24,637 bases of DNA from a virus. Below the pieces are notes generated by a model. That model ran no database searches, was not told the origin of the DNA, and was given only the letters and a program-made list of their open reading frames with translations. Both the position numbers and the translations under genes were made by a program. Positions 9,328-24,587 of the stretch are shown here, piece by piece. The stretch lies in the UHGV virus genome UHGV-0173695; one strand, given 5' to 3'. The stretch's first letter is position 1. Every line of letters begins with the position of its first letter.

Positions 9328-11079
9328 ATGATTCAGGACGCTTTTGTGCGCCAGCGTGCGCGGCAACTTTACTGGCAGGGTTATCCGCCCGCAGAAATAT
9401 CACGTCTGATGGGAATAAACCCGAACACGATTTATGCGTGGAAAAAACGTGACCAGTGGGATGAAACGCCACCCGTGCAGCGTGTCACGCAGTCCATCGA
9501 TGCGCGCCTCATCCAGCTTACTGAAAAACAGAATAAAACAGGCGGTGACTTTAAGGAAATAGACCTGCTGACCCGGCAGCTTAAAAAACTGCATGATGGC
9601 CAGCCGGATGCGACGGTCACAGGAAAGAAAGGCCGGGCGAAAAAACTCAAAAATCATTTCACGCCGGAACAGATTGCCGCACTGCGGGAAAAAATCATCA
9701 GCAGGCTGGAGTGGCATCAGCGGGGCTGGTTTGACTCCCTGACCCTTTGCAGGGAAGCCGGGATACGTAACAGGATGATCCTGAAATCCCGACAGATTGG
9801 GGCGACCTGGTATTTTGCACAGGAAGCGCTGCTGATGGCGCTGCGTGACGATGTGGCGCAACCTTACCAGCGTAACCAGATTTTTTTGTCTGCGTCGCGT
9901 CGTCAGGCGTTCCAGTTTAAAAGCATTATTCAGAAGGCCGCGGCTGAAGTTGATGTGGAGCTGAAAGGGGGCGATAAAATCATCCTCTCCAACGGCGCAG
10001 AGCTGCATTTTCTCGGCACTTCTGCTGCGTCGGCACAGTCCTATACGGGCAATTTTTATTTTGATGAATTTTTCTGGGTCAGTCGCTTTGCTGAACTGCG
10101 CAAGGTGGCTGGCGCTATGGCAACCCTCAGCGGACTGCGGCGCACCTACTTCTCCACGCCATCCACCGAAACGCACGAGGCATACGCCTACTGGAACGGC
10201 GACCGCTGGAACGAGAAAAAGGCCTCGCATAAACGCCAGCGTTTTTCTGTGGACTGGAAAACGCTGCATAACGGGCTTATCTGCCCTGACCGGACGTGGC
10301 GGCAAATTGTCACGCTGGAAGATGTGGTTAATCACGGCTGGAAACACACCGATATTGACGAAATCCGTGATGAAAACACCGAAGACGAGTTCCTCAATCT
10401 CTATATGTGTGAGTTTGTTCGCGAAGGGGAATCGGCATTTAACCTGAATATCCTGATTGGCTGCGGTGTTGACGGATACGACGACTGGAAAGACTGGAAA
10501 CCTTTTGCTCCCCGCCCGATGGGGAATCGTCCGGTATGGATTGGGTATGACGCAAACGGCAGCAGTGGCAACGGCGACAGCGGCGCTGTGTCCGTGGTGG
10601 TTCCTCCGGCTGTTCCTGGTGGCCGTTTTCGAACGGTGGAGACGCGACGCGTTCAGGGGCTGGAGTTTGAAGAACAGGCCAGAGTCATTGAAGAGTTCAC
10701 GTATCGCTACAACGTGGAACACATCGGCATTGATGTGACGGGCGGGAACGGGGAGGCTGTTTATCAGATAGTGAAACGGTTTTTCCCTGCTGCTATTCCG
10801 TACACCTTCACGCTGTCATCAAAACGGTCGCTGGTACTGAAAATGCTGCAAATAATGCGTGCCGGGCGGTGGGAATACGATCGCGCCGAACGCGAGCTGG
10901 TCGCGGCCTTTAACGCCGTGCGTAAGGTGAAAACACCGGGCGGCTTTATCACTTACGAAACGGACCGCGCGAGGGGGATCAGCCACGGCGACCTTGCGTG
11001 GGCAACCATGCTTGCTGTCATTAACGAACCGATTGGCGGCGAAGGAGAAAACGAGCGTTTCACGGTTATGGAGTTCTGA
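9328..11079 (+). CDS. P: Terminase large (ATPase) subunit P
   Basis: 583 aa; begins MIQDAFVRQRARQLYWQGYPPAEISRLMG with an N-terminal HTH as in P2 gpP; stop overlaps the Q start (TGATG). Confidence 0.95.
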   Translation: MIQDAFVRQRARQLYWQGYPPAEISRLMGINPNTIYAWKKRDQWDETPPVQRVTQSIDARLIQLTEKQNKTGGDFKEIDLLTRQLKKLHDGQPDATVTGKKGRAKKLKNHFTPEQIAALREKIISRLEWHQRGWFDSLTLCREAGIRNRMILKSRQIGATWYFAQEALLMALRDDVAQPYQRNQIFLSASRRQAFQFKSIIQKAAAEVDVELKGGDKIILSNGAELHFLGTSAASAQSYTGNFYFDEFFWVSRFAELRKVAGAMATLSGLRRTYFSTPSTETHEAYAYWNGDRWNEKKASHKRQRFSVDWKTLHNGLICPDRTWRQIVTLEDVVNHGWKHTDIDEIRDENTEDEFLNLYMCEFVREGESAFNLNILIGCGVDGYDDWKDWKPFAPRPMGNRPVWIGYDANGSSGNGDSGAVSVVVPPAVPGGRFRTVETRRVQGLEFEEQARVIEEFTYRYNVEHIGIDVTGGNGEAVYQIVKRFFPAAIPYTFTLSSKRSLVLKMLQIMRAGRWEYDRAERELVAAFNAVRKVKTPGGFITYETDRARGISHGDLAWATMLAVINEPIGGEGENERFTVMEF

Positions 11080-12125
11080 TGAGCAGAAAAAATAAAAAAG
11101 TGCGCATGAGTTCACGCATTGATCTCGCTGATGCGCTCAGGAAAGAATCGTCGCTCAGTGCATTCACATTTGATGGTCCTTATCGCCTGACCGGGCATGA
11201 TTTGCTGGACAATATGTACTGTGCTGATAACGGGCGGTGGTATGAAACCCCGGTGGACTGGTACGGTCTGGCAAGAGCTGCCCGGCAAACGTCCTGGCAT
11301 CAGTCTGCGCTTTACTTTAAGCGCAATGTATTGCTCGGTTGCTATATTCCGCACCCGCTGCTTTCCCGGCAGGATTTCTCGGCGCTGGCGCTGGACTGGT
11401 TTGTGTTCGGTAACGCATTCCTTGAGCTTCGAAGCAATATGCTCGGCGAACCGCTTAAATTACGGCACGCCCTGGCGAAATACATGCGACGCGGAAGCGA
11501 TCTTGAATCATGGTGGTATGTGCAGGATGGCAAGGACGCGTTTCAGTTTCGCCCTGGCAAAGTGTGCCACCTGATGAATCCGGATATTAACCAGGAAATC
11601 TACGGCATGCCGGAATATCTCGGCGCATTACTCTCGGCCAGCCTGTCTCATTCGGCGGACATGTTCAGAAAACTGTATTACGACAACGGATCCCACGCCG
11701 GGTGCATCATCTACATCGGTGCAGCGCAGGTAAACCGCGAAAGCATGGACTCCCTGAAAGAAACGTTACAGGGTGCGCGTGGTGGTGGTGCATTTAAAAA
11801 CGTGCTCATTCATGCGCCCAACGGTGGCAAAGAAGGTGTGCAAATTTTGCCGTTCCAGCAGATCACAGCAAAGGATGAGTTCATGAATGTTAAGGCGGCA
11901 TCCCGTGATGATGTGCTGGCTGCGCACCGCGTTCCGCCGCAACTGATGGGGGCGATGCCGGGTGAAAAAAGTGCGTTTGGTGATGTGGAGAAGGCCGCGC
12001 GGGTTTACGCAATTAACGAGCTGATGCCCGTCATGGAGGCCATGAAGCACATCAATGACTGGCTTGGCGAAGAGGTGATCCGCTTTAACCCTTACGCACT
12101 GTTAGATACCCAGCCCACATCCTGA
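11079..12125 (+). CDS. Q: Portal protein Q
   Basis: 348 aa, size as P2 gpQ; immediately follows P; followed by a hairpin and the non-coding cos-proximal region. Confidence 0.9.
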   Translation: MSRKNKKVRMSSRIDLADALRKESSLSAFTFDGPYRLTGHDLLDNMYCADNGRWYETPVDWYGLARAARQTSWHQSALYFKRNVLLGCYIPHPLLSRQDFSALALDWFVFGNAFLELRSNMLGEPLKLRHALAKYMRRGSDLESWWYVQDGKDAFQFRPGKVCHLMNPDINQEIYGMPEYLGALLSASLSHSADMFRKLYYDNGSHAGCIIYIGAAQVNRESMDSLKETLQGARGGGAFKNVLIHAPNGGKEGVQILPFQQITAKDEFMNVKAASRDDVLAAHRVPPQLMGAMPGEKSAFGDVEKAARVYAINELMPVMEAMKHINDWLGEEVIRFNPYALLDTQPTS

Positions 12126-12175: not shown

Positions 12176-12549
12176 GACTCTCCAGCTCCTGTATCAATCA
12201 GATAATTTCACGACGCCTTCCAGTTTATCGCCACCATCGACGGTCAGACTCTTACGCAATCCTACCGCGTTGACTGTATGTTCTCGCCGCCTCAGTGCGA
12301 TTTTGACGGCCTTACCTTTCCCCCCATCAAATCAAAAGCCCTCACATCTTTTTCACGCTCAGCGTGAGAAATATGGCCATTCTGTTGTGTCGCTGCGACA
12401 TCGCTCAGGGAATGCTATTTACCCCCTGAAACGCGGGCTGTTCCCCCGTCACCTGCGCGCAGAAAAAACGCGTTTTTTTGTGCACGCACGGATCCTTGAC
12501 GGATCCAGCCGCCACGCGGGCCGGAAGGGCAAAAAGTCGTTCAAAAAAA

Positions 12550-12576
12550 TTGTGCAAGTTTGTGCACTATTGTGCA
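12550..12576. repeat. Three direct repeats of TTGTGCA phased exactly 10 bp apart
   Basis: aTTGTGCAagtTTGTGCActaTTGTGCAg read directly from the sequence (copies at 12550, 12560, 12570). Confidence 0.6.
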
Positions 12577-12872: not shown

Positions 12873-13160
12873 TCAGCGTGGATAAATTAACTTGAATTTG
12901 AGGAAGTTTTGTTTAATCCAGTCTTTAACATTTTCCCTTCCCTGAATACCTGATGGTAAGTGTTCGTGAATCATCCATTCGACAATGAGTTTCTCTTTCA
13001 GGGAGTATGCCTTAAAGGAATTAAGCATATTTAGTACTTCATAACCCTCTTTGCGGCTAAACCGATGGCGGTCAGCAGCGGTTTTCGTGGGATCATCTCC
13101 TGGCAAAGCAGTCCAACTGTAATCGTCATAAAATAAATCGCTTCTTTTAATATCGGTCAT
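12873..13160 (-). CDS. Hypothetical protein, 95 aa, AT-rich; cargo gene at the tin/old position
   Basis: Complete ORF; weak Shine-Dalgarno (AAGGA) upstream; a stem-loop (CCACCTC...GAGGTGG) lies in the 66-bp gap from the upstream gene; no family recognised. Confidence 0.45.
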   Translation of the reverse strand: MTDIKRSDLFYDDYSWTALPGDDPTKTAADRHRFSRKEGYEVLNMLNSFKAYSLKEKLIVEWMIHEHLPSGIQGRENVKDWIKQNFLKFKLIYPR

Positions 13161-13226: not shown

Positions 13227-13505
13227 TTATGCAGCTTTGAGCAGTGCGCTGCTCATTGCATAGTCGTACCCAAGCATGTATGCCTCAAAGGCGTCTTTAT
13301 GTCTGACTGTGCCAGCCTGGCTATATGGAATATTTGCCAGGAAGGAATCATCTTTAGCTTTAGGAATACCGATCATTGCGTGAAGTACACCAAGCTCGTA
13401 TGCGCAGGCAGCGCAGCGGTGGCGGCCTGTCTGTCCCTGGTTATCGGGAAGGTGTGAGTATTGGGGGTTGTATCGGTGGGAGTTTTTACAAATCTTTATA
13501 CCCAT
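13227..13505 (-). CDS. Hypothetical protein, 92 aa; cargo gene at the tin/old position
   Basis: Complete ORF with GAGGT about 9 nt upstream of the ATG; no family recognised; the overlapping plus-strand ORFs look less protein-like. Confidence 0.45.
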   Translation of the reverse strand: MGIKICKNSHRYNPQYSHLPDNQGQTGRHRCAACAYELGVLHAMIGIPKAKDDSFLANIPYSQAGTVRHKDAFEAYMLGYDYAMSSALLKAA

Positions 13506-13611
13506 ATTTGATTTACCTCAATAAAATGAGGTGTTCACCTTTACATGGGCACACGCAGAAAATACGATTCCGGCGAGCTCAAGAGGTAGATGACACCTCG
13601 ATTTCTTTGGC

Positions 13612-13642
13612 GCCCCAATAGTTACCGCTATTGGGGCGTTTT
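13612..13642 (+). terminator. Rho-independent terminator-like hairpin (plus strand)
   Basis: Perfect 10-bp stem GCCCCAATAG / CTATTGGGGC with loop ttaccg, followed by GTTTT. Confidence 0.5.
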
Positions 13643-13784
13643 CCTATGCATGACACACAAACAAAGTGGTCATATCGTGATCGATCCTACAAAATCCCAT
13701 ACAACTGTCAAGGGTATTGATCGTTTTAATCGATAGATAAATCAATATCTATCTGTTTAACAGATCGATTATTAGGGTAAACAT

Positions 13785-13807
13785 GAAAAAACACCCGTGA
13801 AGGGTGT
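13785..13807 (-). terminator. Rho-independent terminator downstream of the parR-like gene (minus strand)
   Basis: Minus-strand hairpin ACACCC-ttca-CGGGTGT followed by a T-run (plus strand AAAAAACACCCGTGAAGGGTGT), 8 bp after the ParR stop. Confidence 0.55.
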
Positions 13808-13814
13808 TTGTAGG

Positions 13815-14129
13815 TTATTCTGGGAAAAACTCCTGAATGTTCCTTTTTAACTGGCTCTTACTGTGACTGTTTTCTGTTGCAGATGTGCCAGTATGCTTGT
13901 TTCGGATGTTATTTCTTGGTGGTATTGCTTCCTCTTCCTGCCATTCAGCCAGCCAGTAAGCAAAGGCGGGATCGCTTTTAATAAGCGCCAGTCCAGCCAG
14001 AAATGCCGCGCGTTGCGCGCGGCTGCGTTCGGAGGCTGGCAGGCTGTCGAGATAATTACACGCTTCTCGTTCACTCTTGACGGCTGCTGGCTTCAGATAG
14101 AAACTTATCCGTCTGGTTGGAGTCGTCAT
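13815..14129 (-). CDS. parR: ParR-like centromere-binding protein (ribbon-helix-helix, type II partition)
   Basis: Internal start MTTPTRRISFYLKP...NYLDSLPASERSRAQRAAFLAGLALIKSDP closely resembles plasmid R1 ParR as I recall it; AGGAG Shine-Dalgarno 7 nt upstream; start 5 bp after the ParM stop. Track ORF 13815..14264 has an N-terminal extension overlapping parM. Confidence 0.75.
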   Translation of the reverse strand: MTTPTRRISFYLKPAAVKSEREACNYLDSLPASERSRAQRAAFLAGLALIKSDPAFAYWLAEWQEEEAIPPRNNIRNKHTGTSATENSHSKSQLKRNIQEFFPE

Positions 14130-14133
14130 TGGT

Positions 14134-15093
14134 TTACTCCTTGTCCATTGCGTACAGCCCATTAACCAGAGCAAACTGTGGCACCCCGTCCGCGATGAAA
14201 GTCGCATTAACTCCGCAGGCTTCGCGGATAGCGGGTGCCACAATCTCCGCCCCGCCACCGACAACCATCACCCGCCCGTAACCCGAAAACCCCGCCAGCG
14301 CGCGGATCACTCGTTGTTTCAGTGTTTCTTCCTTTTCACGAATAACCGCCATCAGGCTGGCGTAATGCGCGTCATTGTGGATGTGCTGGCGCAACCAGGC
14401 TTCATCATGGCGATGTTCGATAATGGTATTGGCGATGTGGTGACTGGTGCGCATACCGTTAGTGGCCATCACCGACAGTACGGCATCGGCCATCAGAGAA
14501 ACGCCTACGTGTGGATCGCAAAACACCTGGCTGATACCTGCCAGTTGCCCCTGAACCTTTGCCACATCCAGCGTGGTTCCGCCCAAATCCACAATCAGCA
14601 GGGATTCAAACGGACTCATGTCAGCCAGTGCCTTAAAGCCAGCCGGAATGGATTCAGGCATAACCCGCACGTTACGGATAGTGAATGCTTCGCCGTTCTG
14701 GTACTCCACCGGGCGCATAACGTTCGCTTTTTTGCGGTTGATGTTGGCCATGTCCGGCTGTGCGTTTGTGTCGAAATATTCGCTCAGTGGCAGGGTGACA
14801 ACCACATCCACTTCCTGTGGTGTGATGCCTGATTTGACCAGCGCGTGATGAATGGCAATGACATTCACATCGCTGTACTGGTATTGCGTGTCGGTCGTCT
14901 GGACAAAGCGATCGCTGACCGGATCAAAACCATAGCGCACGCCATCAAGCATGTAGTTCGCGGGCTGCGTGCCACCGAACGGCGCAGACCATTCCGACTT
15001 GAAGCTGTTTGGGCTGATGGCGTTGCGGCGTTCGCCGTTCTCAGTCCATGCCAGCTTGATGTTGGTGGAGCCGTCATCGATACAAATTTTCAT
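14134..15093 (-). CDS. parM: ParM/StbA-family actin-like ATPase (type II partition motor)
   Basis: 319 aa; N-terminus MKICIDDGSTNIKLAW (R1 ParM begins MLVFIDDGSTNIKLQW as I recall); further matches ISPNSFK, YSDVNVIAIHHAL, DLGGTTLD, VMVVGGGAE. Confidence 0.9.
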   Translation of the reverse strand: MKICIDDGSTNIKLAWTENGERRNAISPNSFKSEWSAPFGGTQPANYMLDGVRYGFDPVSDRFVQTTDTQYQYSDVNVIAIHHALVKSGITPQEVDVVVTLPLSEYFDTNAQPDMANINRKKANVMRPVEYQNGEAFTIRNVRVMPESIPAGFKALADMSPFESLLIVDLGGTTLDVAKVQGQLAGISQVFCDPHVGVSLMADAVLSVMATNGMRTSHHIANTIIEHRHDEAWLRQHIHNDAHYASLMAVIREKEETLKQRVIRALAGFSGYGRVMVVGGGAEIVAPAIREACGVNATFIADGVPQFALVNGLYAMDKE

Positions 15094-15120: not shown

Positions 15121-15240
15121 ATCGTTTACGGGATTCTGAAATCCCGTTTTTGCCTGTTTTATGCGCGCTTCATATATCGCGGCGCGTTTTTTGCTCATTT
15201 ACGGGATTTGTGAATCCCGTTTCTGTCTGTTTTTTGTTTC
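15121..15240. repeat. parC-like region: two imperfect direct repeats of about 36 bp, each with the palindrome ACGGGATT-N4-AATCCCGT, upstream of parM
   Basis: Palindromes at 15128-15147 and 15201-15220, 73 bp apart, each followed by a T-rich tail (TTTTTGCCTGTTTT / TTTCTGTCTGTTTT). The first lies between the A stop and the parM start; the second lies within the last codons of A. Confidence 0.5.
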
Positions 15241-17992
15241 CACTGGTCAGGCCACCCCGCAGCAGGTCTGCTTTGCGGCGGGCGCGTTCAGTGGTTTCAC
15301 TGATTCTCTGTGCGTGCTCTGCGTCGCGGATGGCGCGCAGCATGTCAGAAAGCACGGTAACGGGTGTTTTCATGGTGTTCTGGTCTTGCTGAAGTGTGGA
15401 TGCCAGGCGTGCGGCGGCTTCGGGGTCTGATGTCCCCAGCTGTTCCAGATAGCTGGCGACCGGGTTATGGCGGATCTCCGTACTGCTTACGCCGTGGTTA
15501 CGGCTCAGGCGCTGCCAGAGCTGCGTGATCCGGCTGTCCGGTCGGGTATCCGGTTTGCGTACAATTTCAAATCCCTGCGGTGCAATGTTGCTGCCGTCAA
15601 CGTACAGACTGCCGCCCCGTAACAGGTGCTGCATCTGCTGTTCACCGATATGCAGGCCGAGAGATTCAGCAGACTCCCGCCATTCTTTAGCGAGTAGTTC
15701 GTGGTTATCAGGCAAAGGCCGCTGCTGTTTGCGGCTCTGTGTCCAGCTCTGCATTTCATCACGGCTGTTTTTTGCCTGTTTGTCACGAAGCGAACGCATC
15801 AGCGCCCGGCGTTCGTGCCGTTTCAGTGAGCGCATCCATTCGTTCACTTCAACGCCGTCAGGGAGCTGCGGCCACGGTGCTGGCCGTTCTTCCGGCTGTT
15901 CTGTCCCGTTGTTGTCCGTTTCCTGTACACGGGGACAGTTATTGCCACGAGTCCAAGGGGCGGCAGGGCCGCCCTGAAGGTCAAAACCATTTTCGTGGGC
16001 GTTGTCTTCTGGTTCTGGTTTACGTCTTACCAACTTCCAGTTATCCGGATGCGTGCACACACGGGAGGATTCCCCGATGAGTGGTGACCAGATCCCGTAA
16101 ATCTGTACGCTCTGTTCGCCGTAATCGTTCAGCTCATCTGCGAGGTCGTAGGCGGTGCGAATCAGGTAGTCCTTGCGTGGAACAAGCACGCCACCCTGTT
16201 TTTCAATGTAGGTGGCAAAACACCCGGCATCGGCGGCAGCGAGTACCGCATCCATTGCATCATCTTTCAGCCGTTGCGGGCCTTCCGGATTGCGTGCCAT
16301 CTGGCTGGCAAGGCGGCGCAGTTCACGCCACACCTGACGGGAGGGGATGCCAAAGAACTGGAACTGACGGACCCGGTGAAGGCGCGCCCAGCCGATGGCG
16401 CGCTCCACGCTCTCGGCCATTGATTTTCCGGTTTCGTGGTCAACGCGTGGCTTGCCCGTTTTCGGGTCGATGCCATCCACGGCGCGGCTGTCCAGGTTCT
16501 TTCCGATGTAGGTAGCGATGTAGCTGGTTGGTGTGCCTTTTGAGCCGTCGACATACTCCGCCTTAAAACGCGGAGTTATGTCATCGCCCAGCTCGTGGCG
16601 GTCCTCCTGAATGGCAATATCGCAGACGTGGGACACGATGGTTTCAATCTCGTCCGGATGTGCAAAGACCATCATATGCCAGTGCACAGTGCCGTCATGG
16701 TGAGGCTCCACCGTGCGGATGCCATACCAGCGCAGGCCGTCGCGGTTCAGTTTTTTGCGGACCGCCGCAAAAAACGTGTTAACCAGGTAATCGCTGGAGT
16801 CGCGCATGGTGGCCCCGTTCCATTTGGGGTTCGGATGACCGTTCTCCGTTGTTGCGTGGTATTTTGACGGGCAGGTGACGGTCAGAAACACCGCTCTGTC
16901 GCCACGGGCTTCGGCCAGAAGTTCCAGTCCCTTCATGGTGGCCATCATTTCTGCCTTACGGTGAACCGGGTTACTTACTCCCGCGTAATACACCGTCTCG
17001 AGATCAATCGTGAACCCGTCTTCATTTTCCAGCGTGAAACTTTTCAGGAAATCGCGTGTTTTCTCGCGCTGTGCGCGAAACTCGCTTAACGCGTCCTGGC
17101 TCAGATAGGGCGATGTTTTTCTGGAAACCAGACAGGCGGCGCGGAGTTGTTCTTCCCGCCACTCGCAACGTAACAGCCACAGTTTGCGTTTCCACCATTC
17201 CGCACAGGTCAGGCGAAGGATTGCGCCCGGCAGCAGCTCCGTGTCTGGTTCGTTCCTCCGGTCTTTGTCTGTTGTCAGTGCGTCATAATGTGGAGGCATG
17301 GCGTGCAGGTGTAACGCCATGCGGGCCAGCATCTGATACGCCTTCAGCGTTACATCCATGGTCAGCTCGCCATCGGTCGCGCCAAAGCCATCGCAGAGTT
17401 TTTCGAAGGTGCTGCTGAACATCGCCGCCGTCATGGTGGCCAGCGTCTGTATCTGGTGTTTGTTGAGCTGCGGCAGGTAAAGCAAATCGTCCAGGCGTTC
17501 GCGTCCGGCAAGGGAGCGATAACCCGGTGTCAGCCAGCGGTGATCGGTGCGGTCCAGACGTTCGAATATTTTGCGCAGGGTTCCGCGTGCATAGCGTTCC
17601 GCCTGCCAGCTCTTTTTGCCTTTCCGGCGATCGGCTTCCTGTTTTTTGCGCAGGAAGGAGAGGTGGCGAATAAGCGGATCGCGCAGATAGGACGGCAGCA
17701 GGCGCAGCGAGGCCATGGCTTCATCCACTGCGCCGCGTGCCTGTTTTCTGGCGTCTCCTGCCAGTGTGATGGTTTTGTCCTGTTTTTCCTGTGCGTCCAG
17801 GCTTTTATTAATCAGGTTGCCCAGCGGCGTGGCGGAGAACGCCGCATCAGCCATTTCCTTGCGGCGCTCGTTCTCTGCCCGGTAGGCATCCAGCCAGGAG
17901 GAAAGCGCGGATTCAGGAGCGGGGATCCCCGTTCCTTCACGCCCCACTGCGTGGCGCGGTTGTTGCCAGTCCCTGATGTACTCTGCCGTCAT
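15170..17992 (-). CDS. A: Replication initiation protein A (rolling-circle endonuclease), P2 gpA family
   Basis: 940 aa; contains HWHMMVFAH and TSYIATYIGKNLD (HUH-type and catalytic-Tyr motifs of gpA-like initiators). Longer than the roughly 761 aa recalled for P2 gpA. Confidence 0.9.
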   Translation of the reverse strand: MTAEYIRDWQQPRHAVGREGTGIPAPESALSSWLDAYRAENERRKEMADAAFSATPLGNLINKSLDAQEKQDKTITLAGDARKQARGAVDEAMASLRLLPSYLRDPLIRHLSFLRKKQEADRRKGKKSWQAERYARGTLRKIFERLDRTDHRWLTPGYRSLAGRERLDDLLYLPQLNKHQIQTLATMTAAMFSSTFEKLCDGFGATDGELTMDVTLKAYQMLARMALHLHAMPPHYDALTTDKDRRNEPDTELLPGAILRLTCAEWWKRKLWLLRCEWREEQLRAACLVSRKTSPYLSQDALSEFRAQREKTRDFLKSFTLENEDGFTIDLETVYYAGVSNPVHRKAEMMATMKGLELLAEARGDRAVFLTVTCPSKYHATTENGHPNPKWNGATMRDSSDYLVNTFFAAVRKKLNRDGLRWYGIRTVEPHHDGTVHWHMMVFAHPDEIETIVSHVCDIAIQEDRHELGDDITPRFKAEYVDGSKGTPTSYIATYIGKNLDSRAVDGIDPKTGKPRVDHETGKSMAESVERAIGWARLHRVRQFQFFGIPSRQVWRELRRLASQMARNPEGPQRLKDDAMDAVLAAADAGCFATYIEKQGGVLVPRKDYLIRTAYDLADELNDYGEQSVQIYGIWSPLIGESSRVCTHPDNWKLVRRKPEPEDNAHENGFDLQGGPAAPWTRGNNCPRVQETDNNGTEQPEERPAPWPQLPDGVEVNEWMRSLKRHERRALMRSLRDKQAKNSRDEMQSWTQSRKQQRPLPDNHELLAKEWRESAESLGLHIGEQQMQHLLRGGSLYVDGSNIAPQGFEIVRKPDTRPDSRITQLWQRLSRNHGVSSTEIRHNPVASYLEQLGTSDPEAAARLASTLQQDQNTMKTPVTVLSDMLRAIRDAEHAQRISETTERARRKADLLRGGLTSGNKKQTETGFTNPVNEQKTRRDI

Positions 17993-17998
17993 AGTGAT

Positions 17999-18598
17999 TT
18001 ACTTCGTCATGCCATTCAGGGTGTCGCGGCAGACGGTAGCCAGCCGCTGAATTTCCAGCACGGTGTCTTCTGTGTCGGCATAGTGATGTGTGATGCGGAT
18101 GCTGTCGGCAATCACATCGACGATCGCAGAGGATGGGCGCTGGTAAATGCCAATAACGGACGGGGTGCCACCTTCAATACGGTAAAGCCTGTAATTTCCC
18201 TCGTGGCTGTCAATCATGTAACGACCATCAATAACAATCTTTCCGTCAGCGAGCTGCGGTACAGGCAGGGATTTCAGGTACATGTCATAACGTTCACGCA
18301 CGCGAACGGCAAGATCACGCTCTGTGTTGAGCAGGTATTCAAGAAAGTCGTTGGCGAGAATCATGCTGCGTTTCTCCTGGTCACAGGTGTGTGACGTGTT
18401 CATGTTGTTGTGAGTGGATGAGTTGTCCGCATTCCGGAGTAACGTGGTATCCATCCAGAACAGGGCGACATAGCCCAGTTCTTTAAGCTCTTTGCGGGCG
18501 GCGTGTTGTGACACAGCGGTAACAGCGATAAAGCATTCTCCTGCCTGTAAGTTGTCGCGATGCAATCCGCTGAAGATATAGATGTTTTTATGTGTCAT
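17999..18598 (-). CDS. Hypothetical early protein, 199 aa
   Basis: Internal start MTHKNIYIFSG with GGAG Shine-Dalgarno upstream; ends 7 bp before the A start. Confidence 0.5.
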   Translation of the reverse strand: MTHKNIYIFSGLHRDNLQAGECFIAVTAVSQHAARKELKELGYVALFWMDTTLLRNADNSSTHNNMNTSHTCDQEKRSMILANDFLEYLLNTERDLAVRVRERYDMYLKSLPVPQLADGKIVIDGRYMIDSHEGNYRLYRIEGGTPSVIGIYQRPSSAIVDVIADSIRITHHYADTEDTVLEIQRLATVCRDTLNGMTK

Positions 18599-18669
18599 GG
18601 TCTTATCTCCGTGACAGGGATGTGCGAAGGCCTCCCGCCGCAAGGTGCAGGAAAGGCCCGGAACAGGAA

Positions 18670-18900
18670 TTAACGGAGTTTGTTTTGCTGCTGGATGAGC
18701 TGCTGAAGCTCGTACAAATCATCCGCCAGATAGCTAAAAACAGAGGCGGAATAAGTGTTTGATAGCGCATGACTGCGCTCATGCAGCATATTGATGTGCA
18801 TGATTTGCGCGACGCGTGATGCGCGGAAAAGTCTGCGGTTGATTTCAGTCTGGATGTGACGACGCTCCGCGATAGCGCGGTGCTGTTTGCGGTTTGCCAT
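18670..18900 (-). CDS. Hypothetical early protein, 76 aa, basic
   Basis: Complete ORF; no Cys, so not an Ogr-type zinc finger; follows a 320-bp non-coding region. Confidence 0.45.
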   Translation of the reverse strand: MANRKQHRAIAERRHIQTEINRRLFRASRVAQIMHINMLHERSHALSNTYSASVFSYLADDLYELQQLIQQQNKLR

Positions 18901-19079
18901 GGTGTGGCCTCTGTAGTTGCAAGTTTTGAAAACTCACCATCCAGAGGTGGAAAACTCGGGGTGGTGAGACGTACAGGGTTTCCACAACCGGCAACTACAG
19001 AACCCGGCCCGACCGAAGTCGGCCCCGTACGCCCCACCATAATTCGTGTGCGAAAAAGACGTGGCGATACAGTACACAC

Positions 19080-19100
19080 AAAAAAACCGCTGGCGCGGTT
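19080..19100 (-). terminator. Weak terminator-like hairpin on the minus strand (AACCGC-gcca-GCGGTT followed by a T-run)
   Basis: Plus strand AAAAAAACCGCTGGCGCGGTT; short stem, so low confidence. Confidence 0.3.
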
Positions 19101-19220
19101 GTGCGCTGTAGTTGTCAGCGGGGTGGAAATCCCGGCACCCGTTTTATGAGATGCAGCGGAAATGTAACCTGACTGATTGCGGCATGGCAAGCAGTTTTTT
19201 TGTGTGTGCATGATGATTAC

Positions 19221-19781
19221 TCAGTTTGGTAATAGCTCGTACAGCACGGCGTCGGCGGCGGTGCGGCGACCGTAAAGAAAACGTGCTGTGCGAGTGGTGA
19301 CTTTTATTTGCAGTGTGTGATTAATGTGTTTTGCTATCATGGCGAACGTCATGTGCTGCTCATCATGTAGTTCAGTCACCAGTTCCACCAGGTGATCGCT
19401 GTATCTGGTCAGGTGGTGGAGTCCTCCGCATTTTCGCAGGCTGTAACCACGTTTTTTCAGGTGCACTTGTACGGTGCGAATGGTGCATCCCACCTCGGCG
19501 GCCAGTTCCCGTGCCGTTCTGGTGCGGCGGTTTTCGATGAGAAAGGCGATCTCCTTTGCACTCAGAGTCTTTTTCTTGCGGCCAATCAATCCACGATCAC
19601 GTAAAAAACTTAGTCGGTGCATAACTGCGTCATGGGTTCGTTGAATTTGTTCGGTTATCTGGCGTGTGTTGCACTCCTGATAAAGCGAGATAAGCATTTC
19701 ATCTTCCTGTTGTGTCCATGGCTTTACATGTGCCGGAGCCACGCCAGGTGTACCCATTGGTTTGAGTTTGAAGTTGTGCAT
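19221..19781 (-). CDS. Putative DNA-binding protein with three tandem helix-turn-helix-like repeats
   Basis: 186 aa with three repeats of about 45 aa (WTQQEDEMLISLYQ...HRLSFLRDRGLIG; SAKEIAFLIENRRTRTARELAAEVGCTIRTVQVHLKKRG; a third repeat), resembling GcrA/Myb-like HTH units; family assignment is tentative. Confidence 0.55.
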   Translation of the reverse strand: MHNFKLKPMGTPGVAPAHVKPWTQQEDEMLISLYQECNTRQITEQIQRTHDAVMHRLSFLRDRGLIGRKKKTLSAKEIAFLIENRRTRTARELAAEVGCTIRTVQVHLKKRGYSLRKCGGLHHLTRYSDHLVELVTELHDEQHMTFAMIAKHINHTLQIKVTTRTARFLYGRRTAADAVLYELLPN

Positions 19782-19966
19782 ATTTCTTACCCCGTTAGTG
19801 GTGGTGCTTTACACGACGTATAAACCGCGGTGGTGGCACCACACTTCAAACATTCGTTTCACAATTTCGCGGCAGTAGTAGCCATTGGTATCTCTTGTCA
19901 GGTCGTAGCGGTTGCCGTAACGCTGATGCATCCATCGTTCAAAGGCTTTGTGCATGCTCTGGTCCC

Positions 19967-20266
19967 TTACTGGTTAAGGAAAAAATCAAAAACCTTGTCG
20001 ATGCGTTGCAGTAGCTCTCGTTGCATTGCTTCCGGCGTTTCTGGTTCACCAGGCGAACCCAGTGGTGCGCAGAAATCAGCGATTTCATGATGGAGCGCCA
20101 GGCGAATGGCTGGAGACATGGTTCTGGCGTGCTCCAGCTCATCCAGCAGTGCCAGCACGGCAGACGGCGAGAGCATTGCGCGAAACGCCAGTAATTTTTG
20201 ATGCGTTGCCATTCGTTGCAGGTCAATCGCCAGTTCGCGTAATTCCTGATGGTTGATGGCGCTCAT
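19967..20266 (-). CDS. Hypothetical early protein, 99 aa
   Basis: Complete ORF whose start overlaps the stop of the upstream gene. Confidence 0.45.
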   Translation of the reverse strand: MSAINHQELRELAIDLQRMATHQKLLAFRAMLSPSAVLALLDELEHARTMSPAIRLALHHEIADFCAPLGSPGEPETPEAMQRELLQRIDKVFDFFLNQ

Positions 20267-20508
20267 GCTCTGGCTTCCTTCAGTAGCTGGTTAAACATGT
20301 TGGTAAGTGGATTGCCGCACCCGAACGGCATCGGGTTTATCTGGTAAGAAAAGCGACCGCCTGTTCTGCGCTCTTTTCTTATGACTGAACCGCTGCGCCA
20401 GAGTCGGCGTAACTCCGCATTAATGGCTGTGGTTGGGGTATTCAGTGCTGCGGCGATTTCTCCACCGCTACACCCCGGATTGGCGGCGATGTAGTCCAGA
20501 ATGGTCAT
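20263..20508 (-). CDS. Putative winged-helix DNA-binding protein, 81 aa
   Basis: N-terminus MTILDYIAANPGCSGGEIAAALNTPTTAINAELRRLWRSGSV resembles a winged-HTH fold; overlaps neighbours at both ends. Confidence 0.5.
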   Translation of the reverse strand: MTILDYIAANPGCSGGEIAAALNTPTTAINAELRRLWRSGSVIRKERRTGGRFSYQINPMPFGCGNPLTNMFNQLLKEARA

Positions 20509-20708
20509 CTGCGTGACTCCTGTACCTGTCTGATAAGATTCACCTGCACCACGTTGGTGGCGCAGAAGTAAGTGTCGTCAGTGAGATAAATGTGATGCGC
20601 GTCAGGTTGCGAACGGTGACGGTCGAGCGTTTTAATCAGCCGTTCGTCAACTTCGTATTCACGTCCTCTGGAAGTGAAACGAACGACGGTAAATCGCTTA
20701 ATTGCCAT
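20505..20708 (-). CDS. Hypothetical early protein, 67 aa
   Basis: AAGGAGG Shine-Dalgarno 4-5 nt upstream of the ATG. Confidence 0.5.
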   Translation of the reverse strand: MAIKRFTVVRFTSRGREYEVDERLIKTLDRHRSQPDAHHIYLTDDTYFCATNVVQVNLIRQVQESRR

Positions 20709-20794
20709 TGCGCCTCCTTGGCGTGTGCGAATACCTCCGCGAATGCGGATTGTTTTTACATTTTCTTATCTAACCTGTGGTTTTATTTGCTCTG

Positions 20795-20908
20795 TTATTC
20801 GCCAGTGAAAAAGCGTTCAATCTTTTTTACTGAATGAATAATTCGCATAATCCCAATGGCGCAGGCCACCGAAATAATCAGAACAAGCCATGAGATAAAT
20901 ATACTCAT
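20795..20908 (-). CDS. Candidate small membrane peptide, 37 aa (MSIFISWLVLIISVACAIGIMRIIHSVKKIERFFTGE)
   Basis: ORF below the track size cutoff, found by hand translation; ATG overlaps the stop of the upstream 81-aa gene (ATGA); one predicted TM helix then a basic tail. Confidence 0.3.
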   Translation of the reverse strand: MSIFISWLVLIISVACAIGIMRIIHSVKKIERFFTGE

Positions 20909-21150
20909 GCAATATTCCCCAGCTTATACGGTTCAATATGTTCCCCGCATTCTGCGGCACAGATCAGCTCGGAAAGTTCGTTAAGTGCATCCAGATCATC
21001 AGCGTAAAAAGCCACGTCATACAGACTCCGGATTGCCCTGGTCAATGAGTCACGGGCTGCACGTTCAGCATGAGCGCCTGATGCACTTAAGCGAAAATAA
21101 AATCGTTCAAGTGCTTTGTTAATGAGAGTTTTATATTCTTTGCCCATCAC
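20905..21150 (-). CDS. Hypothetical early protein, 81 aa
   Basis: Complete ORF in the early operon orientation. Confidence 0.45.
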   Translation of the reverse strand: MMGKEYKTLINKALERFYFRLSASGAHAERAARDSLTRAIRSLYDVAFYADDLDALNELSELICAAECGEHIEPYKLGNIA

Positions 21151-21158
21151 AACGCCCT

Positions 21159-21437
21159 TTAATCTGCTTTCTTAATTTCAGCTTCTGAATCCATACAAAT
21201 AATTTCGATATAGGGTTCATCGCTATTAGCCTGGCGCGCTTTTTCAGCTTCGTTAATGGCTTCGCGAACGGTCTGGTACGGAAGCTCCACGATCAGTTGT
21301 GCGTTGTTCGCATAAACGTGAGTAACTGCTTTTTTTTCTGCCTGGGCTACAGCATCAATAGCTGATGCACGTAATAACAGTTCACCGCGAAAATCAATAA
21401 AACGGATAAATACACCTTGTGCATGCTCTTTGGTCAT
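21159..21437 (-). CDS. Hypothetical early protein, 92 aa
   Basis: Internal start MTKEHAQG at 21437, just after the upstream stop; the track ORF start at 21497 would overlap the upstream gene by 50 nt. Confidence 0.45.
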   Translation of the reverse strand: MTKEHAQGVFIRFIDFRGELLLRASAIDAVAQAEKKAVTHVYANNAQLIVELPYQTVREAINEAEKARQANSDEPYIEIICMDSEAEIKKAD

Positions 21438-21447
21438 AAAGCACCTG

Positions 21448-21798
21448 TTATAAATCAGCCTGTTTAATAAAACTTTGCCCGCGAAGCAGACGATCAACCG
21501 TGCGAAGTGCTTCGTATAATGTGAAATCCTGCCCGAATTGATTGTCGCCGCAGCTCAATGCAAAAATGCGGTTTCCGGTAAACGGATTGCGTGGGCATTT
21601 GTGGACCACGATTCCAGCTTTCTCAATCAGCCAGGCATGCTCGCCGATTTGTTTTACTGGGTAGCCATCCGGCGTTGCGTGTGTTTCGCTCAGGCTGTAG
21701 CGAGAGTTGCTACGTGATGCACTGGTAGCGAAACGGTTAGCATGGCGTTCCGCACCGTTGCGGAAGCGCTGCTGTGAAGAATTGCGCTGTAGTTTCAT
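21448..21798 (-). CDS. Hypothetical early protein, 116 aa
   Basis: Complete ORF with a single possible ATG start. Confidence 0.45.
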   Translation of the reverse strand: MKLQRNSSQQRFRNGAERHANRFATSASRSNSRYSLSETHATPDGYPVKQIGEHAWLIEKAGIVVHKCPRNPFTGNRIFALSCGDNQFGQDFTLYEALRTVDRLLRGQSFIKQADL

Positions 21799-21933
21799 AT
21801 TAAAACTCTGTACCTTCGGTAAGGTGTACTCGTGTCACCTTGTATTGATTTGTGGTATTTTTTGTGTGTCTAGGACTTGGACTGGCCGGTTCAGGTCCTG
21901 GCTTATGTTTAATTAAATTGTTTAGAGGTTTTC

Positions 21934-22125
21934 ATGTCAGAAGATAAAAAAGTTGTTAATTTGTTGAGTGACCTTAGTGCTGCTCTGGATAACATTAACC
22001 CTCCTAGGGTAAAAACGACGGGTGATAAAGACGCATTAAACGCAGAGATTCATATATTACTGGCGTTAGTAACTGACAAAATTCAGCGTAAATACCCACC
22101 TGTCACACAACTGGTTGATTTTTAA
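21934..22125 (+). CDS. Hypothetical small protein, 63 aa, in an AT-rich island, opposite in orientation to the early operon
   Basis: AGAGG Shine-Dalgarno 5 nt upstream of the ATG; convergent with the 140-aa minus-strand ORF; a GC-rich hairpin lies between the two stops. Confidence 0.35.
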   Translation: MSEDKKVVNLLSDLSAALDNINPPRVKTTGDKDALNAEIHILLALVTDKIQRKYPPVTQLVDF

Positions 22126-22131
22126 TTTGAT

Positions 22132-22554
22132 TTATGCCGGGCTGCTCCCGGCATCTTCTAGCTGCCATAATGTCTCGTCACCTGATAGAGCAAAACGAAA
22201 TGAGTGAAGTATATCCTCCCGAGAGAAGCTCACGGCTACAGCTGCGGGAAAGTCAAATATAATCCCACCTTCATTTTTAAAACGATTACGCAATTGATAG
22301 GCTATCGGTTTGATTTGCGCAGGAAGAGTATCTACATCTCTTCCATTGACAACAGAATCTTTGTTTTCCAGTACTGATTTAGCGATTAGATATAGATGCC
22401 AGTAACTGGTTACAATTGTTACTCCTGTGATGTGTCGTAAATTAATTGCAATTCGTCCGTTATTATGTTTTTCCGCAAGGTATTTCAGGTTATCAATTAA
22501 TGCTTGGTCATTTTTTGAAATAGTTATTGTGAAATCTGACGTGTTTGTTTTCAT
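22132..22554 (-). CDS. Hypothetical protein, 140 aa, AT-rich; possible moron downstream of cox
   Basis: Internal start MKTNTSDF at 22554, 4 bp after the cox-like stop. The track ORF 22132..22797 has a low-complexity N-terminal extension overlapping the cox-like frame. The sequence is visibly AT-rich compared with the flanking phage genes. Confidence 0.5.
   Translation of the reverse strand: MKTNTSDFTITISKNDQALIDNLKYLAEKHNNGRIAINLRHITGVTIVTSYWHLYLIAKSVLENKDSVVNGRDVDTLPAQIKPIAYQLRNRFKNEGGIIFDFPAAVAVSFSREDILHSFRFALSGDETLWQLEDAGSSPA
22136..22152. terminator. GC hairpin GCCGGG-ctgct-CCCGGC between convergent ORFs (possible bidirectional terminator)
   Basis: Perfect 6-bp inverted repeat 11 bp after the plus-strand ORF stop, overlapping the last codons of the minus-strand ORF. 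Confidence 0.4.
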
Positions 22555-22558
22555 ACGA

Positions 22559-23080
22559 TTAGTTGCCTCTGTTGTTTCTGAGTTGGTCCAGTTTTGAGCT
22601 TCTGCCTGTATAAACTCGCTTACCGTTAATGGTCTGGCAGTCTTCTTTATTAGCTGGAGAGAACTTCCTTTTCTGGCGGTCATACGTCCAGTAACTTTTC
22701 CAGTTGTGCCATTCTGGGGGCTCGTGCTCTGGTAGCTCATCAGCCAACTTGTCCCACTCTTTGGCGTTAAACCACCATACTCCGTCTGAGTTTTCATCTT
22801 CCGGGTTTGTGCGCGTCTTGTGTCCCGGCATTTGACCGCGATGAATGGCTACGCGCAGTGCAGATTTTGTTAGCCCAATATATGCCGCGCCTTTTTCCAG
22901 AGAGCAAAGCCCGGCGATCGGACCATCCAGCCGTAAAGTCGCTCCTTTTTTGTAGGAACGCTTTTTCTTGTTTTCTTCGTGTTCGTCGTCGTTGGCGGCA
23001 TCAATGGATCCGCTGAGTGCGTCACTTTCCTGAAGTGGTTGGTGGTCAGATAACTCTTTATCGGCAATGAAGTCCCGCAT
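22559..23080 (-). CDS. cox: Cox/Apl-like excisionase-type DNA-binding regulator, extended form (173 aa)
   Basis: First gene of the early operon, divergent from C. Central region AYIGLTKSALRVAIHRGQMPGHK...GVWWFNAKEW parallels the P2 Cox pattern (HTH then an aromatic-rich segment) as I recall it. Has an acidic N-terminal extension and a Trp-rich C-terminal extension absent from the 91-aa P2 Cox. Confidence 0.6.
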   Translation of the reverse strand: MRDFIADKELSDHQPLQESDALSGSIDAANDDEHEENKKKRSYKKGATLRLDGPIAGLCSLEKGAAYIGLTKSALRVAIHRGQMPGHKTRTNPEDENSDGVWWFNAKEWDKLADELPEHEPPEWHNWKSYWTYDRQKRKFSPANKEDCQTINGKRVYTGRSSKLDQLRNNRGN

Positions 23081-23183
23081 TTGTTATCCTCTTGCGTTGG
23101 TGCGCTTGTTGCGCCTTGTGATGGTTTGTTTTGGTTTGTTTTCTTCACCCTGTGGTGAAGAGTAAAAAGAGGATACTCATCGT
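23081..23183. promoter_or_regulatory. Immunity switch region with divergent promoters (Pe leftward, Pc rightward) and operator-like repeats
   Basis: Tandem direct repeat GGTTTGTTTT x2 (23123-23142) followed by inverted repeat TTCACC-ctgt-GGTGAA (23144-23159), between divergent cox and C. P2 C repressor is known to bind direct repeats flanking the early promoter. Confidence 0.5.
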
Positions 23184-23525
23184 ATGGTGAACATGTCAAG
23201 AGATTACGCCAAAAAACTAAAGGCGATCAGAAATGCGGAAAAACTTACACAATCTCAGTTTTCGCAAGTAACGGGGGTTTCTGTAGGGACTATAGGAAAT
23301 TATGAGTCTGGATATAAACCTGCGCGCATTGAGGTTGTAGAAAAAGTAATCCAAGTCGAGCGATTCGAAAAATACACTATGTGGATACTTCACGACAAAA
23401 CATTTCCCGCTGCCGGGCAGGTTGCTCCGGCTCTCTCTCTTGATGGCTCTATTCAGTCGGAGGGCGATCAGGTTTCAATCGGTATTACCCAAAAATCACC
23501 CCGATCAGGCCGCAATGTTGGCTGA
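23184..23525 (+). CDS. C: Immunity repressor, P2 C-type
   Basis: 113 aa; KLKAIRNAEKLTQSQFSQVTGVSVGTIGNYESG...FEKYTMWIL...GQVAPAL parallels P2 C as I recall it. Start could be 23184 or the in-frame ATG at 23193. Confidence 0.85.
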   Translation: MVNMSRDYAKKLKAIRNAEKLTQSQFSQVTGVSVGTIGNYESGYKPARIEVVEKVIQVERFEKYTMWILHDKTFPAAGQVAPALSLDGSIQSEGDQVSIGITQKSPRSGRNVG

Positions 23526-23594
23526 CTCTACACATTGAGCGAATTACATATCGCAAGGAGTGTTTAGTTAATTTATCCGTTAGAGGGGCTAATC

Positions 23595-24587
23595 ATGTCG
23601 ATTAAGCAACTCAAAGACGGACGTTATCAGGTCGATGTCAGACCGCAGGGGGCGGAAGGAAAGCGGATTCGAAAAATCTTTGCCCTGAAATCAAAGGCTC
23701 AGGAGTTTGAGAAGTATGTGTTACAGAACTTTCATGACAAGCCATGGCAGGCTAAGCCAGCTGATCAGCGGCGATTATCAGAGCTGCTTGATGCGTGGTG
23801 GATGCTTGATGGGCGTAATCAGGCTTACGGGGATAGCTACAGGGTTAGGCTAGGGAAGGTTGTTCGTGAAATGGGAGATCCTCGCGCCAGTCAGATGACG
23901 CGAAAATTTATGCTTGAATATCGGTCAGAGAAATTACAGGCCGGATTAATGCCGTCCAGTATTAATCGTGACTTATGCGTACTGTCTACCATGTTCACGG
24001 TGCTGATTGAAGCTGAGGTCTTTCACAACGCGAACCCTGTACGCGGTATACGAAAACTGAAAGTTCAGAACACAGAGATGGCCTTTCTTTCTGATGATGA
24101 GATTGAACGGCTTCTTGAGCGACTGGAGGGTGATGCGCGTCGTGTTGCCATTCTGTGTCTTTCTACTGGTGCCCGATGGAGTGAAGCATCGGAACTACGT
24201 GGAGAGCATATCGTTGGCAACCGGGTGACGTTCTTTAACACCAAAAACGGAAAATCCCGTTCGGTTCCTGTGGCGGATTCGGTCGTGCCTCTGATTAAAA
24301 CCCGTCGAACGGGGTTATTGTATCAGGTTGATTATCTGAAGTTCCGGGAGATTCTTCAGGAGGTGAAACCGGATTTGCCGAAGGGGCAGGCTACGCATGT
24401 CATGCGTCATACATTTGCCACACACTTTATGATGAATGGCGGAAATATTGTTACGTTGCAACGAATCCTGGGGCACGCAACGATTCAGCAAACAATGACG
24501 TACGCTCATTTTTCGCCGGACTTCTTACAGGACGCGATCAACTTTAATCCGCTGGCTGAAAGTGTCCATAAACTGTCCATCGATTAG
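23595..24587 (+). CDS. int: Tyrosine integrase (P2 Int family)
   Basis: 330 aa; C-terminal catalytic region HVMRHTFATHFMMNGGNIVTLQRILGHATIQQTMTYAHF (R-H-x-x-R...Y); located after C and at the prophage edge as in P2. Confidence 0.95.
   Translation: MSIKQLKDGRYQVDVRPQGAEGKRIRKIFALKSKAQEFEKYVLQNFHDKPWQAKPADQRRLSELLDAWWMLDGRNQAYGDSYRVRLGKVVREMGDPRASQMTRKFMLEYRSEKLQAGLMPSSINRDLCVLSTMFTVLIEAEVFHNANPVRGIRKLKVQNTEMAFLSDDEIERLLERLEGDARRVAILCLSTGARWSEASELRGEHIVGNRVTFFNTKNGKSRSVPVADSVVPLIKTRRTGLLYQVDYLKFREILQEVKPDLPKGQATHVMRHTFATHFMMNGGNIVTLQRILGHATIQQTMTYAHFSPDFLQDAINFNPLAESVHKLSID

Follow-up and report, generated by a model that had tools for sequence, protein, structure and literature searches.

The window, by which we mean the whole 24,637-nucleotide stretch of DNA that we analyzed, is a P2-family prophage of the P88/Xuanwuvirus type, as its terminase, portal, parMR and gpA-like replication genes show. 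The large terminase gene (9328-11079) and the portal gene (11079-12125), both on the plus strand, are followed by p95 (12873..13160, minus strand), p92 (13227..13505, minus strand), a block of GATC sites and dyad symmetry, a terminator, a Plasmid_stab_B/ParR-like gene (13815-14129), the ParM gene (14134-15093) and a gene for a 940-aa gpA-like replication endonuclease (15170-17992). The gpA-gpQ interval beside cos is a published diversity hotspot of P2-like phages, about one quarter of which carry a partition system there, and the catalogue of this hotspot includes StbA and Plasmid_stab_B followed by two hypothetical genes (PMC9122126).

The cargo segment of the window has a GC content of 0.37-0.46, against a window mean of 0.53, and, going by the predicted promoter and the strands of the genes, the cargo cassette is transcribed leftward, on the minus strand. 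Its upstream edge is the intrinsic terminator of the parM-parR operon, which a terminator scan placed at 13789..13809 on the minus strand (an 8-bp stem, then a T run); homology between versions of the cassette starts just past this terminator, near 13781. Farther to the left, at about 12.1-12.6 kb, is a conserved portal-proximal segment in which we infer cos to be located. The conserved portal-proximal non-coding segment at 12440-12560, which may belong to cos, contains a palindrome, AAAAAACGCGTTTTTT, at 12463-12478, as well as a pair of GGATCC sites that lie 11 bp apart and have their GATC at 12491 and 12502.

Direct reading of the sequence gave four GATC sites in the block, starting at 13679, 13683, 13719 and 13763 and thus within 88 bp, where the original prediction had counted three. 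This cluster (13679-13766) is the densest in the window, which has 64 GATC in its 24.6 kb, and its first two sites make up GATCGATC (13679..13686). The perfect inverted repeat that had been described, GATAGATA-aatcaa-TATCTATC, is present at 13732-13753, as are the flanking ATCGAT copies, at 13680, 13729 and 13764 (three of the window's six copies), and the block had been correctly placed, with the par cassette on one side and the small cargo genes on the other. The inverted repeat is the core of a longer, imperfect dyad whose two 24-nt arms (13716-13739 and 13746-13769) show 75% complementarity; inside this dyad are two 15-bp palindromes, A (ATCGTTTTAATCGAT, 13720-13734) and B (ATCTGTTTAACAGAT, 13751-13765). 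The proximal arm of palindrome A is overlapped by the GATC at 13719-13722, and the distal arm of palindrome B by that at 13763-13766.

At least 4 GATC within 90 bp were reached in 18% of 500 Markov-1 simulated windows, and 4.1 ± 2.1 perfect palindromes with 8-bp arms were expected by chance per simulated window. The statistics of a single sequence are therefore not decisive, and the case for function rests on comparison. Between two P2-like phage lineages, the dyad and GATC block was 81% identical, against 57% for the p92 coding sequence; in the same two lineages a hairpin within the p92 leader, which we read as the terminator of an antisense RNA, was 84% identical and the remaining leader 21-59%. 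Together with the recurrence of the GATC positions in 20 diverged versions of the cassette (see below), this conservation shows that the block exceeds chance.

Linkage of the block to p92 and not to parMR

We sampled 86 loci encoding a ParR relative; a ParR-based scan of genome contigs yielded 2 loci, and viral contigs were far more productive. Among the 86 loci, a 16-nt dyad probe, ATCGATCTGTTAAACA, matched all those that had a p92 homologue and none of those lacking p92. This co-occurrence holds across five ParR alleles (100, 68, 67, 66 and 54% identity). Roughly half of the loci with ParR were without the module, among them some whose ParR allele is 76-78% identical to that of the window, and loci lacking p92 had unrelated cargo directly after parR. 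Since the dyad module tracks the presence and absence of p92, the block is part of the p92 cassette and not of parMR.

The original prediction had also suggested a link to the ParR-like protein, and the repeats could indeed be read as a ParR-binding centromere or operator (parC-like) downstream of parR: the block abuts the par cassette, and parR lay immediately upstream in all 75 of the dyad-type modules with enough flanking sequence. However, ParR loci lacking the 92-aa gene are also without the block, so that it is not co-inherited with parR as a parC site in cis would be, and a different pair of palindromes, linked to par, lies upstream of parM. We consider a par-related role of the block very improbable. 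From the sequence distribution, ParR is likewise unlikely to bind the dyad, because the block co-occurs with p92 and not with ParR.

The par-linked element consists of two 42-nt direct repeats, 73 bp apart (15122-15236). One of them falls in the gap between repA and parM, and the other is contained in the 3' end of the coding region of repA. Each repeat holds a 20-bp palindrome, ACGGGATT-N4-AATCCCGT, at 15128-15147 and 15201-15220, respectively. Relative to parM, these palindromes lay at -53 and -126 in the majority of ParR loci, whatever the cargo, and they do not resemble the dyad of the GATC block. The region upstream of parM is the classical position of parC, with repeats, and the 42-nt pair is likely to be the parC/operator of the phage parMR. 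The GATC/dyad block is accordingly reassigned from a par-adjacent feature to the control region of p92, with the par centromere likely to be upstream of parM. One of the loci with a ParR relative and the parM-upstream palindromes, L004 (NZ_JBQPOM010000071.1), is titled Vagococcus sp., a Gram-positive genus; it is near-identical in sequence to the Salmonella locus L005 and may be a contaminated or mislabelled assembly.

Homologues of p92 were also found in other phages. In a P22-like Salmonella phage the homologue lies downstream of cI, in the rex position, and in a Providencia lambdoid phage it lies between Q and the lysis genes. With a 271-base probe that spans the control block (13560-13830), we detected the cassette in 173 of 5,426 complete E. 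coli genomes. A related version, of the 520873 type, is carried by E. coli O157:H7 FRIK2455 (NZ_CP015843.2) at about 2,402,798-2,402,965. The neighboring gene p95 (phrog_33929) was found with some versions of the cassette and missing from others, and diverges faster, with 68-79% identity against 93-99% for p92 in the same loci; because of its partial presence and faster divergence, p95 is probably a separate module. In the literature, we found no name for the 92-aa protein and no description of a comparable Dam/antisense cassette from P2-like phages.

Predicted promoter and GATC positions in the cassette family

On the cargo strand, a promoter scan found TTGACA-16-TAGGAT, which matches the sigma-70 consensus at 10 of 12 positions. 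This predicted core promoter (13684..13711, minus strand) has its -35 hexamer, TTGACA, at 13711-13706 and, after the 16-nt spacer, its -10 hexamer, TAGGAT, at 13689-13684, with a sequence-based prediction of +1 near 13676-13678. Relative to a +1 at ~13677, the GATC sites start at -89, -45, -9 and -5. The -9 site (13686-13683) overlaps the -10 hexamer as TAGGATC, the -45 site (13719..13722) is 7 nt upstream of the -35 hexamer, and the -89 site (13763..13766) is in the distal arm of the dyad. The dyad is centered at about -66, and the -89 and -45 sites, which are 44 bp apart, are mirror-symmetric about its center.

We then compared the regions upstream of p92 homologues. The 142 loci fell into 28 clusters, and the compared set comprised the 20 clusters in which the p92 protein is at least 55% identical, drawn from P2-like, P22-like and lambdoid contexts. 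The -35 and -10 hexamers, at a spacing of 16-18 nt, were retained in all 20 clusters. The clusters also share a layout that runs, from the 5' end, through an upstream terminator, a GATC, the sigma-70 promoter and a short leader to a hairpin at a fixed position, an antisense promoter, a hairpin that sequesters the SD and, at the 3' end, the ATG. The comparative evidence, comprising the sigma-70 match, the exact co-occurrence with the 92-aa gene and the survival of both hexamers in diverged versions, thus supports well the earlier proposal that the block is the promoter/operator of the downstream cargo genes.

All 20 clusters had a GATC starting at -45 or -44, with flanking sequences of three different kinds, and the -89 site was kept in all three P2-like cassette clusters. 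A GATC at -9, overlapping the -10 hexamer, was found in 6 clusters and one at -34 or -32, overlapping the -35 hexamer, in 5 (together 11 of 20); other clusters have a second GATC at +7 or +18. In most clusters the second GATC lies in or near the core promoter. The extended dyad is confined to the P2-like versions. The non-P2 versions keep GATC sites and mostly have two further ones around the antisense promoter. Across the 20 clusters, GATC occurred 3.95 times per 280-nt upstream region, against 0.15-1.5 times for other palindromic tetramers of the same composition, a roughly fourfold enrichment over comparable tetramers across the family, and it was the third commonest of all 256 tetramers. 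In E. coli prophages GATC is under-represented (PMC4659465).

Conservation in this set is partly by descent, because the 20 clusters are homologous promoters. The -45 GATC is embedded in a larger conserved motif, TAAG-N2-GATC-TTT, and what is selected may therefore be a protein site or an UP-like element and not methylation. Distant p92 relatives (<50% identity) kept the antisense layout and had only 0-1 GATC. Their flanks resemble enterobacterial phages and, going by this resemblance, these relatives probably come from Dam+ hosts.

Predicted leader and antisense RNA, and the p92 protein

The predicted p92 mRNA leader is about 172 nt long (13506..13677, minus strand) and structured, with a fold z-score of -4.75, and its layout is conserved across clusters. 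Overlapping it on the plus strand (13540..13645) are a predicted convergent promoter, TTTACA-17-TACGAT at 13540-13568, and a cis-antisense RNA. The predicted antisense RNA of about 70 nt (about 13575-13645; fold z-score -4.4) is complementary to the middle of the leader and would form a small hairpin, then a hairpin with a perfect 11-bp stem (13611..13638, plus strand) and a TTTT after it, the one that we read as its terminator (13611-13642). The position of this hairpin is fixed between clusters and its stem sequence co-varies. The TTTACA element, seen on the sense strand as TGTAAAG, was kept in all clusters, including relatives of 42-46% protein identity that have strong terminators. An Rfam search of the window region and nine related loci gave sub-threshold matches only, to NsiR1 at 29.6 bits (gathering 39) and to sar at 23.5 (gathering 43), and no family was assigned.

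A further predicted hairpin (13501..13549, minus strand) pairs the SD, GAGGT, and the AUG of p92 with the upstream leader. Because an equivalent SD-sequestering hairpin, built from different sequences, was predicted in every cluster, the folds suggest that the primary transcript of p92 would be translationally inert.

In the 92-aa p92 protein, which belongs to phrog_3941, a C-x3-H...C-x2-C motif is conserved and one segment is repeated internally (QxGxxGRHKCxxCAYExG / SQAGxVRHKDAFEAYxxG). Its AlphaFold model was fairly confident (pLDDT 80) and had no structural match, and the protein had no sequence match in the PDB, no Pfam or other family annotation with a function beyond phrog_3941 and, like p95, no match to a defence system in PADLOC. 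A profile search of 1.84 billion representatives returned 502 p92 relatives, the majority of them unfused proteins of 80-100 aa. Some are fused to HNH_2, NOV_C, DndB or WYL, the NOV_C fusions often having two copies of the zinc-finger half of p92. Proteins listed with this domain observation are P0059, P0060, P0103, P0118 and P0128. Such fusion architectures recall modification-dependent nucleases and regulators of defence systems, and partners of this type commonly accompany modules for nucleic-acid recognition in proteins of defence or regulation. The p92 domain may be an undescribed nucleic-acid-binding module.

Models of cassette control and related systems

Our preferred reading, to which we assign a probability of roughly 0.6, is that 13677-13781 serves an autonomous moron cassette as its promoter and upstream control region, the promoter being tightly repressed and Dam-sensitive, with an operator-like dyad upstream. 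The predicted strong sigma-70 promoter would drive the leader and p92, and perhaps p95, which may be co-transcribed. Repression would have three layers. The first would be the Dam sites at fixed promoter positions, with one GATC overlapping the -10 hexamer, the -45 GATC where the alpha subunit of RNA polymerase or an activator would contact DNA, and the -89 GATC as the symmetric partner of the -45 site across the dyad. Full methylation, hemimethylation after passage of the replication fork or no methylation would then give different promoter strength, different binding of a protein to the dyad, or both. The second layer would be the convergent antisense RNA, complementary to the leader, and the third the leader hairpin that hides the ribosome-binding site and AUG. 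We infer from this arrangement that Dam methylation would alter the activity of the promoter, that a protein would bind the dyad and that p92 would need tight repression. Dam-methylation-sensitive control is plausible because the GATC sites occupy conserved promoter positions. No phage-encoded Dam was found among the ten early-region ORFs (17999-24587) when these were compared with Pfam.

Several observations count against the preferred reading. The GATC overlapping the -10 hexamer was present in only 6 of 20 clusters, the distant p92 relatives have the antisense layout but 0-1 GATC, and the dyad is limited to P2-like versions; in addition, the homologous clusters owe part of their conservation to inheritance, and in a single sequence the GATC cluster is within chance (18%). 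If the reading is correct, a widespread prophage cargo cassette would be under joint control by epigenetic state, antisense RNA and mRNA structure, and would be a compact system, amenable to experiment, in which Dam-linked regulation operates within an accessory hotspot of a phage. The p92 domain, fused to nucleases elsewhere, would be a candidate nucleic-acid-recognition module in defence or regulation.

The strongest competitor, unlikely though far from negligible in our estimate, is that the block is an operator and nothing more: the dyad and the TAAG-N2-GATC-TTT motif would bind a sequence-specific regulator, with the GATC sites incidental and Dam without a role. This regulator could be p92 itself or a host protein, either one of the LysR type, as OxyR is, or one of another kind. 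The better conservation of the dyad block than of the coding sequence and the larger motif around the -45 GATC both fit such an operator. So do the two palindromes of the T-N11-A type, whose centers near -50 and -81 correspond to the arrangement that LysR-type regulators usually have, and binding of a LysR-type regulator to the dyad is possible on sequence grounds. At 13720-13734, 8 of 10 positions agree with the OxyR half-site ATAGnTnnnAnCTAT, in the form of the consensus given in PMC2909390, and in a related locus 9 of 10 do; sequences reaching 8 of 10 numbered only 4 in the whole window on both strands, two of them being palindrome A. A full OxyR site was rejected, however, since the second half-site matches at only 6 of 10 positions and is offset by 31 bp against the canonical 22. 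The non-P2 versions of the cassette had no OxyR-like sites, and these versions are without the dyad yet retain their GATC sites. An incidental role is also at odds with the enrichment of GATC over palindromes of the same composition and with its occurrence at several promoter positions in unrelated flanks. An operator shared with C/Cox was rejected as well, with no second copy of any of the dyads in the window, the C/Cox immunity region included.

Late promoters that depend on P2 Ogr have a dyad, TGT-N12-ACA, centered near -55. We rejected a promoter of this type, having found no TGT-N12-ACA between 12401 and 18506.

It is improbable that a random GATC cluster and palindrome happened to fall in an AT-rich spacer (GC 0.37-0.39) whose sole role is to contain the promoter. 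The simulations described above, and the ease with which 8-bp palindromes arise randomly, would allow this in a single window, but the block is conserved above the adjacent coding sequence, the -45 GATC is fixed in 20 of 20 clusters and GATC is enriched about fourfold across the family.

Somewhat more doubtful still is a speculative reading in which p92 is itself a small DNA-binding "reader" of GATC methylation state and the promoter GATCs are its autoregulatory operators. This idea draws on the nuclease, DndB and WYL fusions and on the GATC sites fixed in close versions of the cassette. The cassette would then act as a phage-borne sensor of the Dam methylation status of the host or of an invader, responding, for example, to undermethylated DNA during rapid phage replication or to DNA newly entering the cell, and the antisense RNA and leader hairpin would serve as safety catches.

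An origin, a SeqA sequestration site or a part of cos is hardly credible: the region is cos-proximal and GATC clusters are typical of oriC-like, SeqA-bound regions, but cos is expected in the portal-proximal segment, the 19-nt P2 cos end had no match anywhere in the window, P2-type origins lie inside gene A, and the module travels with p92 to P22-like and lambdoid moron positions unrelated to ori or cos.

We compared the cassette of the preferred reading with four known systems. Like the cargo of the P2 old/tin hotspot, the p92 cassette lies between gpA and gpQ beside cos, in hypervariable cargo with its own promoters, and its order of StbA, Plasmid_stab_B and two hypotheticals is catalogued there, p95 being a listed "hypothetical" (PMC9122126). 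That catalogue is one of gene content, and describes neither the p92 family nor the layout of promoter, GATC sites and antisense RNA. With type I toxin-antitoxin systems (hok/sok, symE/symR) the cassette shares a small ORF on prophages, a long structured leader, a sequestered SD and AUG and, by prediction, a short antisense RNA that is transcribed convergently from a promoter of its own and has its own terminator; a cis-antisense RNA and an inert leader are thus both present as predictions. In contrast to the small hydrophobic peptides of those systems, p92 is soluble-looking and zinc-finger-like, with no fold match, and the predicted antisense RNA does not overlap the translation start.

The Dam/OxyR switches (P22 gtr, agn43, opvAB) likewise have GATC sites in or beside palindromes upstream of a promoter of the lysogenic-conversion type, and one palindrome of the p92 cassette resembles an OxyR half-site with ATCG/CGAT in place of ATAG/CTAT. 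However, two half-sites ATAGnTnnnAnCTAT at tetramer spacing were not found; the cassette has one acceptable half-site, and its 31-bp spacing is not that of an OxyR tetramer. In gtr the GATC sites are paired within half-sites, whereas those of the p92 cassette are not, and the dyad is missing from most versions of the cassette.

In IS10, the -10 of pIN has an overlapping Dam site, and the transcript from this promoter is also the target of a 69-nt antisense RNA (PMC5006887). The p92 cassette differs in encoding a 92-aa phrog_3941 protein and not a transposase, and in an antisense RNA that would pair with the middle of the leader and not with the ribosome-binding site, a separate hairpin hiding the SD and AUG. 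It also adds the invariant -45 GATC and, in P2-like versions, the dyad with its symmetric GATC pair. Nevertheless, a GATC lies on the -10 hexamer of the sense promoter in the window, as in 6 of the 20 clusters (5 others have it in the -35), a convergent promoter is predicted in the leader with a cis-antisense RNA of ~70 nt, and in both cases a gene on a mobile element would be under several layers of repression. By this analogy the logic of the p92 cassette resembles that of IS10 pIN/RNA-OUT, the closest documented system.
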